Positions 12,457 through 61,648 of a stretch of DNA of 64,000 bases are shown here, one piece after another. Location: the sequence record MH243438.1; one strand, written 5' to 3'. The translations under genes and the position numbers were made by a program. Source of the DNA: Escherichia phage vB_EcoM_NBG1. The notes beneath the pieces are model-generated. The model was not told the origin of the DNA, ran no database searches, and saw nothing but the letters and a program-made list of their open reading frames with translations. Every line of letters begins with the position of its first letter. Positions within the stretch are counted from its first letter, which is position 1.

Positions 12457-12535
12457 AATATTCTCTCTTTTACTAATAATCTCCCGGCTGTATCGGAAGG
12501 ACCTAAAACCATTATACATAGGTTGCCTTGAAGCA

Positions 12536-59255: not shown

Positions 59256-60581
59256 TCAAAGTGCCTCCAAGTCTTTAGTGTACTCTGTCACAACATCAGT
59301 AGACTTCCAATACTCATTTTCTTCTTTCTTAGCTTTAGCTTCTTCTGCTAGTTTACGTGCTTCATCGGAAGTGATATGGAAGATGTTAAGACCTACCAGT
59401 TTATCGACATGTTCTTTATACATTTCGATTTGTGCTAGCTCTTCAGTCAAAGCTTTACGAGTCTTGCCCTGAATCACAATTTCACCGTTGATAACTTTTT
59501 TGATGAAGTGCGCCTTAGCAAAAGCAAGTTTAAATGCTTTTTCAGATTCAAGGATTTTGTTGTCAATACGTTTCTGAACGTAAGTCTTACGGACTTCAAC
59601 AAAATCTTTGATTAAGTCCACTACGTTATCGTAGACAGCTAATTTACCCTTTTCATTAATCACTGTGATGTTTTGTGAACGACGTTCGATGAGACTAAAA
59701 TCTTTCATGATTTTTTCATGACGTAGCTCTTCATCACCAGGAAGCGAGTACTCTTTACGGAACTTCACCTTAAACCCAAAGCCGTGTTCACCACAATCAT
59801 CTTCCCATGAGATTAGACCTTTGTCTTCCAATGGGTCAAGAACCTTACTCACGTACGTTTCACGGTCGAATTTATATGGGATTTCAGTTATCTGCATTTG
59901 AGTGCGAGATGTGAACTTATATGTTCCGTGAATCTCATAACGCCCATCAACTTCATGTACTTCACCACGGAATTCCGGGAATTCAACTTTTGGCTTAGTG
60001 ACATTTTTACCTTGAAGAGCTTGTAATACAGCCTTTTTTACCGATTTAAAACTATGAGGCAGAATATTTGTTGCGTAACCGGTTGCAATACCAGAGACAC
60101 CATTCAAAAGAACTGTCGGAATAATAGGAAGATAGAATTTTGGTGGAACGTGTTCTTTATCTTCATGAGCTGGAGCATATTCAGTATCTTTATATACGTT
60201 ATAGAAATTTTTACTTACACGAGCAAAAATATAACGAGATGCTGCAGCTTTTTGGACTGTTCTAGAACCAAAGTTGCCTTGGCCATCTAACAGTGGATAG
60301 TTGTTGTTCCATGTGTTAGCCATTAATGCACCTGCATCTTGTGCAGAAGATTCACCATGGTGATAACCTAAATCTGCAACACCGCCTGCAATTGACGCAA
60401 GTTTATGAAATTTTTCTTTATTACCACGAGCCAAATCTAACGCACGATGAACCACAAAACGTTGAACCGGCTTAAATCCATCAATCATGTTTGGGATTGC
60501 ACGGTTTTCAACGGTGTACATCGCATATGCTAAGGCTTCGTTATCAATAATACTTTTTAGATTACGAGAATTCAATTGCAT
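59256..60581 (-). CDS. 52: DNA topoisomerase II medium subunit gp52
   Basis: 441 aa; MQLNSRNLKSIIDNEALAYAMYTVENRAIPNMIDGFKPVQRF... matches remembered T4 gp52. Confidence 0.96.
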   Translation of the reverse strand: MQLNSRNLKSIIDNEALAYAMYTVENRAIPNMIDGFKPVQRFVVHRALDLARGNKEKFHKLASIAGGVADLGYHHGESSAQDAGALMANTWNNNYPLLDGQGNFGSRTVQKAAASRYIFARVSKNFYNVYKDTEYAPAHEDKEHVPPKFYLPIIPTVLLNGVSGIATGYATNILPHSFKSVKKAVLQALQGKNVTKPKVEFPEFRGEVHEVDGRYEIHGTYKFTSRTQMQITEIPYKFDRETYVSKVLDPLEDKGLISWEDDCGEHGFGFKVKFRKEYSLPGDEELRHEKIMKDFSLIERRSQNITVINEKGKLAVYDNVVDLIKDFVEVRKTYVQKRIDNKILESEKAFKLAFAKAHFIKKVINGEIVIQGKTRKALTEELAQIEMYKEHVDKLVGLNIFHITSDEARKLAEEAKAKKEENEYWKSTDVVTEYTKDLEAL

Positions 60582-60585
60582 ATTT

Positions 60586-60726
60586 TCACCATATTAATGA
60601 ACGAATAACCATTATAACATCTGAAATGAAAAGCACTACTTGGATTAGTCCAAACATCACACCATAGTACAGAACCGTAAGCAACAACAAGAGCCCGAAG
60701 GCTCCTGCTAAGATTTTCTTAATCAT
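60586..60726 (-). CDS. Small hydrophobic membrane protein (not in ORF track)
   Basis: Hand-translated 46 aa (MIKKILAGAFGLLLLLTVLYYGVMFGLIQVVLFISDVIMVIRSLIW); start overlaps the stop of the upstream small ORF (TAATG). Confidence 0.4.
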   Translation of the reverse strand: MIKKILAGAFGLLLLLTVLYYGVMFGLIQVVLFISDVIMVIRSLIW

Positions 60727-60872
60727 TACTCGCCTTTTAACACGTTAAGAAGAGCTAAGACCGCTAAGGTACCTTGTGATACGGCCTGTTGAAATACTGT
60801 TGTTTCGCCTGTAACTAAAGTGTTAACGAATAAAAACGACCAACACAGCAATGCAATAATCCATGCTACCAT
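60726..60872 (-). CDS. Small hydrophobic membrane protein (not in ORF track)
   Basis: Hand-translated 48 aa (MVAWIIALLCWSFLFVNTLVTGETTVFQQAVSQGTLAVLALLNVLKGE); lies between ndd and gene 52. Confidence 0.4.
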   Translation of the reverse strand: MVAWIIALLCWSFLFVNTLVTGETTVFQQAVSQGTLAVLALLNVLKGE

Positions 60873-60924
60873 TTTAATTACCTCAAAAATAAATTAAAGG
60901 CCTAACTTAATAGGCCTGTATAAA

Positions 60925-61371
60925 TTAGTAACTCTGCAGAATGAATTTGAAATTATCAGCCAGAAGACGGTTCATTTCAGTGAGTGTTTGATATTCTGAT
61001 GTATGGTTGCGAGTGAATGCCAGAGCCAATTGACCTTTACCATAACCAGTGGTCAATGGTTTCATGTTCTTAGCTGCAACAAAGATTACATCATATTCAA
61101 TATTGTTAGTGCCCATGGTACGAGCCAGTTGCGAACGGCCTTGACGAATGTGAGAAAGAATTGCATCCAACCCTTGTTTAGAACGTTGACGTCCTACAAA
61201 GAATCGTGCTGCTACTTGTCGCCAATCGGATGAACCTTTAACAAAGAAGTAAAAACCTTCACGAGAACGAAACTCTTTAGAAACTTCAGAACCGTATTCG
61301 CCATTACGAACTACTGCAACAACTTCACCGCCAACTGCCAGAAGGTCTTTACGAGTTAAATATTTGGACAT
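60925..61371 (-). CDS. ndd: Nucleoid disruption protein Ndd
   Basis: 148 aa; [29 protein letters not shown] and C-terminus [45 protein letters not shown] match remembered T4 Ndd. Confidence 0.93.
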
Positions 61372-61413
61372 GCTAATTTCCTCAATTGATTAATGTTTTT
61401 GTAATCCATGAGA

Positions 61414-61446
61414 GCATTATACTCTGCTCTCAAGAGTTTGTACAAT
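61414..61446 (-). promoter_or_regulatory. Early-promoter-like element upstream of ndd (diverged -35)
   Basis: -10 region GAGTATAATG as in the 33154 and 26045 elements, but -35 reads TTGTAC instead of GTTTAC. Confidence 0.4.
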
Positions 61447-61447
61447 T

Positions 61448-61648
61448 TTATTCGGCCATATCAGAACGTTCAAAAAGCTCTTCAACAGTTAAACATTCAG
61501 TGCCATCTTCAATAAAGAATCGAGTCCAACACGTTGGGGCGATACAGTTATGAGTTTGTCCGGCGATAGAAGCTACACGAATAAGCTGCTGACCATTATT
61601 CAGGACAAATTTTTCACCAATTTCAACATCTTTAAAAAGCTTAGCCAT
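61448..61648 (-). CDS. Hypothetical protein
   Basis: 66 aa; early promoter 61674-61706. Confidence 0.5.
   Translation of the reverse strand: MAKLFKDVEIGEKFVLNNGQQLIRVASIAGQTHNCIAPTCWTRFFIEDGTECLTVEELFERSDMAE

Follow-up and report, generated by a model that had tools for sequence, protein, structure and literature searches.

Two overlapping genes for very small hydrophobic proteins between ndd and gene 52 of Escherichia phage vB_EcoM_NBG1, probable orthologues of T4 ac and 52.1

Gene content of the ndd-gene 52 interval

The DNA analysed here, called the window in what follows, is a 64-kb stretch of Escherichia phage vB_EcoM_NBG1. It belongs to a Mosigvirus, with a nucleotide identity of 99.5% to phage APCEc01. 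A previous sequence-only reading had reported two small open reading frames of 48 and 46 amino acids at positions 60586-60872, joined by a TAATG junction, and both were found exactly there on the minus strand. ORF48 (60726..60872) is read from 60872 to 60726 and encodes MVAWIIALLCWSFLFVNTLVTGETTVFQQAVSQGTLAVLALLNVLKGE. ORF46 (60586..60726), read from 60726 to 60586, encodes MIKKILAGAFGLLLLLTVLYYGVMFGLIQVVLFISDVIMVIRSLIW. At the TAATG junction, the two frames share one base. ORF46 is terminated by a TGA codon (60588..60586) and the ATG of gene 52 is located at 60581; the spacer between them is 4 nt long (AAAT) and not 5 nt as first proposed.

The two frames are flanked on the same strand by ndd (60925..61371), coding for the nucleoid disruption protein of 148 residues (Pfam Phage_T4_Ndd, E=4.3e-89; labelled ndd in both APCEc01 and RB69), and by gene 52 (59256..60581), coding for the medium subunit of DNA topoisomerase II (441 residues), which was identified from the list of open reading frames and from the APCEc01 and RB69 annotations. 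The upstream position of ndd fixes the synteny of the locus. The order ndd - ORF48 - ORF46 - gene 52 on one strand is also that of APCEc01, RB69 and RB51, and RB69 carries the same pair of genes with equal lengths, the 1-nt overlap and the 4-nt gap to gene 52. The T4 order, ndd-stp-ac-52.1-52, differs from that of NBG1 by the additional stp gene.

Stp is a soluble peptide of 26 amino acids, not a membrane protein, which activates the host PrrC anticodon nuclease. The sequence-only reading had mentioned stp among the genes of this neighbourhood, but it is absent here. The spacer between ndd and ac measures 52 nt and contains no such open reading frame, and a tblastn search of the whole window with T4 Stp returned chance-level matches only, the best of which (E=0.071) lies elsewhere than in the spacer. 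Both ORF48 and ORF46 are unlike Stp. A consensus scan of the same spacer revealed a terminator-like hairpin (60898..60917, minus strand) with the structure AGGCCT-N8-AGGCCT followed by TTAATTTATT. In phage SA79RD, the ndd-ac hairpin is annotated as a rho-independent terminator, and T4-type phages carry a GGCGTC-UUCG-GACGCC hairpin at the equivalent site before ac. An Rfam search of positions 60300-61500 gave no match, even at E<=1.

Both frames are conserved genes coding for very small hydrophobic proteins. Conservation in related phages is extensive, since tblastn against a phage collection yielded 273 records with ORF48 and 727 with ORF46. In homology searches, each frame matched a dedicated phage protein family with an E-value of about 1e-22, far beyond chance. 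Searches of large databases returned solely proteins of T-even-type phages (12 clusters for ORF46 and 4 for ORF48), and no distant relative of known function was found for either protein by these searches. Matches to transmembrane segments in NCBIfam stayed at chance level, and membership in a defence or anti-defence family was rejected, as PADLOC gave only a chance-level match (E=0.038).

ORF48 and ORF46 very probably correspond, as Mosigvirus orthologues, to ac and 52.1, two early genes of T4. The expectation of hydrophobic peptides, the coupling-type overlap and the comparison with T4 were thus right, whereas the idea of small membrane peptides additional to ac was not: the first frame is the ac gene and the second is the gene named 52.1 in T4. 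Neither is new. Both received their names in T4 decades ago, they have been annotated in RB69 (NP_861957 and NP_861956) since its genome record, and they are also annotated in APCEc01.

The ac gene

The ac frame is preceded by a Shine-Dalgarno sequence read as GAGGT (60880..60884, minus strand), located 7 nt before the ATG, and the gene is annotated in APCEc01, RB69 and SA79RD. Its product matches phrog_2501 over the full length (E=3.2e-22). With the same profile, E-values of 2.2e-25, 2.2e-23 and 1.7e-17 were obtained for the Ac proteins of T4, RB51 and Roth20, respectively. ORF48 thus shares family and size class with T4 Ac (51 aa, AAD42488 / UniProt P18924) and RB69 Ac (NP_861957), and its gene, like theirs, lies after ndd and directly before 52.1. 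When compared by BLASTP, ORF48 and T4 Ac are 37% identical over 35 residues (E=2e-7). A Cys-Trp motif and an SVF-Q-x3-QG motif are kept between ORF48 and the T4 and RB69 proteins.

One transmembrane helix had been proposed for each of the two proteins, a proposal borne out only in part. For ORF48, AlphaFold2 predicts two helices instead, at residues 2-21 and 24-45, with moderate confidence (pLDDT 78), the first helix alone being strongly hydrophobic. An ESMfold model of T4 Ac likewise consists of two helices, joined at D26-A27 (bioRxiv 10.1101/2025.06.30.662393). This hinge aligns with G22-E23 of ORF48, so that the two proteins are predicted to be alike in having two helices and a hinge at equivalent residues. 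Furthermore, Gly34 of ORF48 occupies an invariant column of the alignment and matches Gly38 of T4 Ac, the residue whose replacement by arginine (G38R) confers acriflavine resistance (bioRxiv 10.1101/2025.06.30.662393); this glycine belongs to the conserved motifs mentioned above.

Differences between the Ac proteins were also observed. ORF48 belongs to a subtype characterized by the sequence TGET(S/T)V(F/I), unlike T4 Ac, and this subtype is also present in RB51, JS98 and Klebsiella phages; in T4_ev151, an Ac of this subtype coexists with a copy of the T4 type. The C-terminus of ORF48 is KGE with a 1-nt overlap with the next gene, whereas that of T4 Ac is ND with an 8-nt overlap. The RB69 gene is identical to ORF48 in its length and junctions. 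The T4 gene, unlike ORF48, is preceded by stp. Ac evolves faster than 52.1, with pN/pS values of 0.4-0.7.

Action of Ac on acridine sensitivity

In the presence of T4 Ac, the infected or Ac-expressing cell accumulates acridines or becomes sensitive to them, and the loss of Ac gives rise to acriflavine-resistant phages (bioRxiv 10.1101/2025.06.30.662393). As it is the wild-type protein that causes sensitivity, the database name 'acridine resistance protein' describes the mutant and not the protein. The phenotype has been demonstrated in T4 and T2 only. For ORF48, it would be expected by homology to T4 Ac, from which it is transferred at 37% identity. Soon after infection, Ac would form a short helical hairpin inserted in the inner membrane, and the membrane-bound protein would then raise the net intracellular concentration of acridine.

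The route that we tentatively consider the most likely one, in line with the 2025 preprint, is an interference of Ac with efflux driven by the proton motive force (AcrAB-TolC); the mechanism rests on sensitisation data (bioRxiv 10.1101/2025.06.30.662393). A somewhat less probable explanation, which corresponds to the classical view of Silver, is that Ac raises the permeability of the envelope to cationic dyes without any inhibition of the efflux pump. Early uptake studies, as related in the preprint, point in this direction, as infected cells took up more acridine and cells infected with ac mutants took up less (via bioRxiv 10.1101/2025.06.30.662393). It is plausible that a small hairpin peptide in the membrane could disturb the bilayer or alter the membrane potential. 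However, the expression of Ac also sensitises cells to ampicillin, from which the authors argue for impaired efflux (bioRxiv 10.1101/2025.06.30.662393). The sequence of the protein is neutral between permeability and efflux. A second locus of quinacrine resistance, 'q', presumably lies near ac; a text search for this locus returned nothing relevant.

The 52.1 gene

The product of ORF46 matches the Pfam family DUF7396 (PF24129) over the entire profile (positions 1-46 of 46) with a score of 79.9 bits (E=1.6e-22), the curated gathering cut-off of this family being 27 bits. It also matches phrog_3595 (E=9.7e-23) and is 72% identical to T4 gp52.1. The proteins of T4 (AAD42526 / UniProt P18922) and RB69 (NP_861956) have the same length of 46 residues, and the core YYG...QVVLFISD...SL.W is invariant. 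The N-terminal third differs, residues 7-18 being AGAFGLLLLLTV in ORF46 and GYSLALAALLVA in T4 gp52.1, and the stop codon is TGA here and TAA in T4.

For this second protein, AlphaFold2 predicts with high confidence (pLDDT 97) a single uninterrupted hydrophobic helix of 44 residues, from position 2 to position 45, which is about twice the length needed for one crossing of the membrane. No solved relative was retrieved when the PDB was searched with a 52.1 profile. E. coli AcrZ, a 49-aa single-helix peptide which binds AcrB, is similar to gp52.1 in size and in consisting of a single long hydrophobic helix, a likeness that would fit a locus acting on AcrAB-TolC. Mimicry by homology was rejected: in BLASTP comparisons of ORF48 and ORF46 with AcrZ, no alignment was obtained at E<=100. 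AcrZ is thus not homologous to either protein, and a functional analogy would be pure speculation.

The 52.1 gene is under strong purifying selection. Its dN/dS ratio is about 0.1 (0.09-0.15 where dS could be computed, dS being saturated in the other comparisons). Between clades, dN is about 0.21 and synonymous sites are saturated, and the variable columns are distributed over the three codon positions as 17/12/33.

Expression and probable translational coupling

In T4, ac and 52.1 belong to the early class at the RNA level, and neither Ac nor gp52.1 was detected by mass spectrometry in T4 proteomics (PMC9697503 supplement), an outcome to be expected of hydrophobic peptides of this size. Among T4 deletions, one listed as gp52.1-rIIB could be recovered (PMC9712115). 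The gp52.1 protein would be a second small membrane helix, probably dispensable in the laboratory.

In every clade examined, the start of 52.1 overlaps the upstream open reading frame, by 1 nt in NBG1 and RB69, by 8 nt in T4, RB51 and Roth20, and by 4 nt in the VR-type sequences L016 and L017. Furthermore, no Shine-Dalgarno sequence precedes 52.1 in T4, RB51, JS98 and the VR types. The overlap being kept in all clades and a Shine-Dalgarno sequence of 52.1 being usually absent, these observations support translational coupling. In NBG1, gp52.1 would be made from the same early mRNA as Ac through termination and reinitiation at TAATG.

Such a coupling would suit an obligate two-peptide membrane complex, in which Ac and gp52.1 are produced in a fixed proportion and are both needed for the acridine phenotype, but we consider this association unlikely. 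The conserved stop/start overlap and the lack of a Shine-Dalgarno sequence proper to 52.1 are in its favour, both products are predicted to be small membrane helices, and Ac supplied from a plasmid is less efficient than Ac made by the phage (bioRxiv 10.1101/2025.06.30.662393). However, T4 ac alone on a plasmid sensitises E. coli to acriflavine (bioRxiv 10.1101/2025.06.30.662393). The gene arrangements of other phages also weaken an obligate pair: in VR-type phages, 52.1 is coupled to a peptide of the phrog_9347 family and the interval contains no Ac, and in JS98 a phrog_9347 peptide separates the Ac gene from 52.1. In addition, the T4-type N-terminus of 52.1 occurs with four different upstream peptides, with no sign of co-variation.

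Probable regulatory signals within 52.1

The 52.1 frame contains an RNA hairpin, UAGCAGGAGCC-UUCG-GGCUCUUGUUG, in codons 6-14 (60685..60710, minus strand). When its minimum free energy was compared with that of 2000 synonymous recodings, values of -16.6 kcal/mol and -7.1 +/- 2.6 kcal/mol were obtained, respectively (z=-3.7), which supports a selection of the hairpin (codons 6-19) beyond the needs of the protein. Hairpins with other stems are located at the same place in T4, in JS98-type and VR-type phages and in Klebsiella phage Roth20; the NBG1 hairpin, with its UUCG loop, thus has another stem than that of T4. In SA79RD, the hairpin inside 52.1 is annotated as a terminator. The NBG1 hairpin was not taken to be a classical intrinsic terminator, since a simple scan was negative and its U-tract, like that of T4, is poor.

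Further downstream, codons 31-39 overlap a MotA-type middle promoter of gene 52, TGCTTTTCA-N10-TATAAT (60611..60635, minus strand), for which a start at about position 60604 and a leader of 23 nt are predicted. The strict motif of these promoters was found twice in 64 kb, where 0.31 occurrences are expected. The orthologous T4 site is the mapped promoter P52, with a start at T4 position 165227, exactly 7 nt past the -10 hexamer, and the TGCTT element is invariant in 16 distinct sequences. Finally, the Shine-Dalgarno sequence of gene 52, read as GGTGA (60586..60590, minus strand), is made up of the final codon of 52.1 and its stop codon, and is followed by the 4-nt spacer and the ATG of gene 52. 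GGTAA and 4 nt precede gene 52 in T4, RB51 and the VR-type sequence L016. The arrangement of JS98-type phages is the same except for the letters of the spacer, and in the VR-type sequence L018 the spacer is longer. ORF46 therefore resembles T4 52.1 in its 4-nt gap to gene 52, in the embedded P52 motif and gene 52 Shine-Dalgarno sequence, and in its overlap-type start.

From the position of these signals, we infer that the 52.1 DNA both encodes a protein and controls the expression of the topoisomerase through P52 and the gene 52 ribosome-binding site. The conserved frame, the mapped middle promoter, the ribosome-binding site and the selected hairpin would make the gene a compact example of multi-layer coding.

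The hydrophobic peptide of about 50 residues encoded upstream of 52.1 varies among phages, being an Ac of one of two subtypes or a member of the unrelated phrog_9347 family. It is conceivable, but improbable, that a modular system of two membrane peptides exists in which gp52.1 is the partner that stays constant and the 52.1 frame includes a regulatory RNA element. If this were the case, the hairpin would set the amount of 52.1 relative to the upstream peptide; it might partially terminate the early ndd-ac transcript or stabilise its 3' end, or else cause a pause favouring reinitiation. The interchangeable upstream peptides could then direct gp52.1, as a shared scaffold, towards different membrane proteins of the host.

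That ORF46 is not a functional protein, its conservation reflecting only the gene 52 signals (P52, hairpin and ribosome-binding site), is very improbable: all three signals, P52 as mapped in T4 included, do lie inside 52.1, the SA79RD and mar005P1 annotations place only a terminator and a promoter there, with no coding sequence, and gp52.1 is missing from T4 proteomics, but the amino acids are kept while synonymous sites are saturated between clades and variation at third positions is dominant, the LYYG and FGLIQVV stretches are conserved outside the promoter core with many synonymous changes, and the reading frame, the length of 46 residues and the start overlap are retained from Escherichia to Klebsiella phages.

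Annotation of ac and 52.1

As a discovery, the ac/52.1 pair matters little, and its practical value lies in annotation. The Mosigvirus/RB51-type Ac is a distinct subtype, only distantly identical to T4 Ac as reported above, and its neighbour 52.1 is strongly constrained and apparently coupled to it. The ac gene is used for counter-selection, and the way in which it acts is currently being debated (2025 preprint, cited in PNAS 2026). In several Mosigvirus records 52.1 is missing, and in others 52.1 or a second copy carries the label "acridine resistance", a misleading name for a protein whose wild-type form causes sensitivity.

Identification of the two reading frames as ac and 52.1

All ORFs of at least 20 aa were listed and the region was read directly. 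Upstream lies ndd (60925..61371, a 148-aa ORF; Pfam Phage_T4_Ndd, 4.3e-89) and downstream gene 52 (59256..60581, a 441-aa ORF for the topoisomerase II medium subunit). The two ORFs proposed by the sequence-only reading were found at exactly the coordinates given, with the strand corrected to minus: ORF48 (60872..60726, 48 aa, MVAWIIALLCWSFLFVNTLVTGETTVFQQAVSQGTLAVLALLNVLKGE), preceded by the Shine-Dalgarno sequence GAGGT 7 nt before its ATG, and ORF46 (60726..60586, 46 aa, MIKKILAGAFGLLLLLTVLYYGVMFGLIQVVLFISDVIMVIRSLIW). They are joined, as proposed, by TAATG, in which one base is common to the ORF48 stop and the ORF46 ATG. The ORF46 stop TGA (60588..60586) is separated from the gene 52 ATG by AAAT, that is by 4 nt and not by the 5 nt first counted. 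A candidate early promoter of the ndd-ac-52.1 transcript, strongly sigma-70-like (TGTACA-17-TATAAT, 10/12 matches), lies at 61416-61444 on the minus strand, about 45 nt 5' of the ndd ATG.

These ORFs had been taken for additional small peptides in the neighbourhood of ac and stp, an interpretation that holds in part: ORF48 and ORF46 are ac and 52.1 themselves, and the pair is thus already known. ORF48 matched the PHROG protein family phrog_2501 (3.2e-22), as did T4 Ac (2.2e-25), and BLASTP aligned the two proteins with 37% identity across 35 residues (E=2e-7). ORF46 is 72% identical to gp52.1 of T4 and matched phrog_3595 (9.7e-23) and Pfam DUF7396 (PF24129; 79.9 bits for a gathering score of 27). 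The T4 reference record gives the gene order ndd-stp-ac-52.1-52. In RB69, the type Mosigvirus, both genes are present with equal lengths, the 1-nt overlap and the 4-nt gap to gene 52. When a 1.1-kb query around the region was used, Escherichia phage APCEc01 was 99.5% identical and about 150 further Mosigvirus genomes were 95-99% identical. Conservation in related phages was borne out by tblastn against 50,697 phage records, where relatives of ORF48 and ORF46 were present in 273 and 727 records, respectively. In a collection of 5.8 billion proteins, 52.1 led to 12 clusters, all PF24129, and Ac to 4 clusters, with T-even-type phage proteins only in both cases.

In APCEc01, ORF48 is annotated as 'acridine resistance protein', a misnomer since the wild-type protein confers sensitivity, and ORF46 as 'hypothetical protein'. 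Annotation of relatives is uneven: the Mosigviruses SA79RD, mar005P1, JK45 and mogra carry no separate hypothetical-protein CDS for 52.1.

Predicted shape of the two proteins

Both products are, as proposed, predicted small membrane peptides. Their shape was examined in Kyte-Doolittle profiles and in AlphaFold2 models built from small alignments. ORF48 shows a strongly hydrophobic N-terminal segment, a polar stretch (TGETTVFQQAVSQG) and a weaker second segment; its model contains helices 2-21 and 24-45, broken at Gly22-Glu23 (mean pLDDT 78). This agrees with the two-helix ESMfold model of T4 Ac, whose hinge D26-A27 (10.1101/2025.06.30.662393) aligns with the ORF48 break. ORF46 is hydrophobic over nearly its whole length (GRAVY 1.86) and was modeled as a single unbroken helix of residues 2-45 (mean pLDDT 97). 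One transmembrane helix per protein is a reasonable starting description of 52.1 and too simple for Ac. As the predicted helix of gp52.1, with 44 residues, is about double what a single pass through the membrane requires, the protein may adopt either one crossing or a hairpin. A bend at the invariant Tyr-Tyr-Gly (residues 20-22) would place Lys3, Lys4 and Arg42 on one side.

Function of Ac and gp52.1

In T4, acridine sensitivity is due to the product of ac, and mutation or deletion of the gene gives resistance. Expression of T4 ac in E. coli sensitised the cells to acriflavine (3-log drop) and ampicillin, deletion of ac allows T4 to plate on acriflavine, and the G38R substitution in T4 Ac gives resistance (10.1101/2025.06.30.662393). 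Gly34 of ORF48, which aligns with T4 Gly38, is an invariant column. Ac would raise acridine accumulation in the infected cell, by one of two routes, neither of which is proven. The authors of the preprint proposed that membrane-inserted Ac blocks AcrAB-TolC (10.1101/2025.06.30.662393), and this was restated as the assumed mechanism in a 2026 PNAS paper (PMC13250531). Silver's older view, as summarised in the preprint (10.1101/2025.06.30.662393), was an early change in envelope permeability. Of the two, inhibition of efflux is somewhat favoured over a general change in permeability.

For gp52.1, which would be translated together with Ac, no functional study was found; this strongly constrained protein is one point of remaining interest. 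In time-resolved omics of T4, 52.1, ac and stp all belong to the 'early' RNA class and have no protein class, which means that mass spectrometry did not detect their products (PMC9697503 supplement). The block is dispensable in the laboratory, since recovery of the T4 deletion entered as 'gp52.1-rIIB' had a success rate of 100% (PMC9712115). The best explanation is that the ac and 52.1 products are early, dispensable small inner-membrane proteins.

Probable translational coupling within a modular interval

Every small ORF in the ndd-52.1 interval was tabulated and classified with PHROGs. The order is ndd, ac, 52.1, 52 in the window and RB69, ndd, stp, ac, 52.1 in T4 and RB51, and ndd, stp, ac, a 53-aa phrog_9347 peptide, 52.1 in the JS98 type. 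In the VR type, which has no ac in the interval, it is ndd, stp, phrog_9347 peptide, 52.1, and in Klebsiella phage Roth20 it is ndd, a 57-aa phrog_5941 peptide, ac, 52.1. The phrog_9347 product is a two-helix hydrophobic peptide of 53-55 aa which can replace Ac in the slot before 52.1, and the hydrophobic phrog_5941 peptide can adjoin ndd downstream; among the loci compared, members of these two families lie at 1047-1208 (L008, L015, L020), 1040-1204 (L016, L017), 1041-1208 (L018), 1304-1477 (L021) and 793-966 (L020). Small membrane peptides thus form a modular cassette in this interval, in which 52.1 is constant and the peptide upstream of it is interchangeable, the latter being a second point of interest.

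Unlike T4, RB51, the JS98 type and the VR type, the window Mosigvirus has no stp, the gene whose product activates the host anticodon nuclease PrrC, between ndd and ac. The 52-nt ndd-ac spacer (60873-60924) holds only a terminator-like hairpin (60898-60917), and a tblastn search with T4 Stp over the full 64 kb of the window gave chance-level matches only; the absence of stp is genuine.

The laboratory-evolved T4 relative T4_ev151 (LR597660) has the order ndd, stp, two tandem phrog_2501 genes, 52.1. The first Ac-family gene (1483-1638) is RB51/Mosigvirus-like and the second (1649-1807) T4-like; both are labeled 'Acridine resistance', and 52.1 (1800-1940) is unannotated.

Across the clades compared, the 52.1 start is always overlapped by the ORF directly upstream. 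The overlap measures 1 nt (TAATG) in Mosigviruses, 4 nt (ATGA) in two VR-type loci and 8 nt (ATGATTAA) in T4, RB51, the JS98 type, Roth20 and the third VR-type locus. No Shine-Dalgarno sequence precedes 52.1 in the T4, RB51, JS98 and VR types, and a weak AAGG is the best candidate in the window. Coupling of the two ORFs, as first suggested, is very probable. Since the junction persists even when the upstream peptide belongs to another family, 52.1 would be translated by termination-reinitiation, for which the comparative support is good. The possibility that Ac and gp52.1 form an obligate, specific complex is argued against by the T4-type 52.1 N-terminus, which is paired with four different upstream peptides with no co-variation seen.

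Coding constraint and embedded signals in 52.1

Orthologous genes were taken from the window, from five GenBank loci with annotation and from twelve loci of IMG/VR, 18 sources in all, which provided 16 distinct 52.1 nucleotide sequences. Among these, variable columns numbered 17, 12 and 33 at codon positions 1, 2 and 3. Comparison of the window with the T4, JS98 and VR types gave about 23-26 synonymous differences per about 33 synonymous sites, i.e. saturation, for about 19-22 non-synonymous differences per about 105 sites; where dS was computable, dN/dS was 0.09-0.15. This signature indicates strong purifying selection on the protein, and argues against ORF46 as a mere open frame over regulatory DNA. 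Ac evolves faster (pN/pS 0.4-0.7 between subtypes) and keeps Cys10-Trp11 and a VF-Q-x3-QG motif. In one 52.1 family member of 47 aa from an ENA contig (P0012), the first 13 residues are swapped for an unrelated polar MKYMTVTDLNNAG..., with the conserved C-terminal two thirds unbroken; the start may be an alternative or a miscalled one, or the gene may be a recombinant.

Codons 6-14 of 52.1 (60710..60685, minus strand) form an 11-bp hairpin with a UUCG tetraloop, UAGCAGGAGCC-UUCG-GGCUCUUGUUG. As a control, 2000 recodings of the same peptide were drawn from the codon usage of the window. The native MFE in the window was -16.6 kcal/mol, compared with -7.1 ± 2.6 after recoding (z = -3.7; fraction at or below native, 0.0005). 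The corresponding values were -18.7 and -8.3 ± 2.6 (z = -4.0; 0.0005) in T4, -19.7 and -9.5 ± 2.8 (z = -3.7; 0.002) in the JS98 type, -19.0 and -8.4 ± 2.6 (z = -4.1; 0) and -19.4 and -8.0 ± 2.7 (z = -4.3; 0.001) in two VR-type loci, and -15.8 and -10.0 ± 2.9 (z = -2.0; 0.03) in Roth20. In RB51-type phages the hairpin is largely lost (-6.9 and -4.8 ± 2.1; z = -1.0; 0.17). Equivalent hairpins with other stems occur in T4-like, JS98-like, VR-like and Klebsiella phages; the stems are unlike among Mosigvirus, T4-like and Klebsiella phages and coincide with the least conserved part of gp52.1. Selection for RNA structure is reasonably supported, and the hairpin is a third point of interest. In SA79RD it is annotated as a rho-independent terminator, which is doubtful given the poor U-tract of both the window and the T4 hairpin; a simple terminator scan did not report it and Rfam gave nothing at this site.

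The 52.1 frame also holds the promoter and the ribosome-binding site of gene 52. The Shine-Dalgarno sequence GGTGA of gene 52 is the last codon plus the stop codon of 52.1, and a MotA box with a -10 motif, TGCTTTTCA-N10-TATAAT, occupies codons 31-39 (60635..60611, minus strand). The T4 middle promoter P52 was experimentally identified (Stoskiene et al. 2007), as cited in the Hinton review of 2010. Table 1 of that review prints its start as 65227; standing between the entries 153011 and 166702, this is evidently T4 position 165227 with the leading 1 apparently dropped. Position 165227 falls within T4 52.1, exactly 7 nt past the orthologous hexamer TATTAT, and the ATG of gene 52 follows 23 nt later. 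As the window motif predicts a start near 60604, with the same 23-nt leader, the P52 element known in T4 is conserved in the window. In the window the strict pattern TGCTT-N12-14-TATAAT has two matches, for 0.31 expected; the other match (12511-12535, minus strand) is a candidate second MotA-dependent middle promoter.
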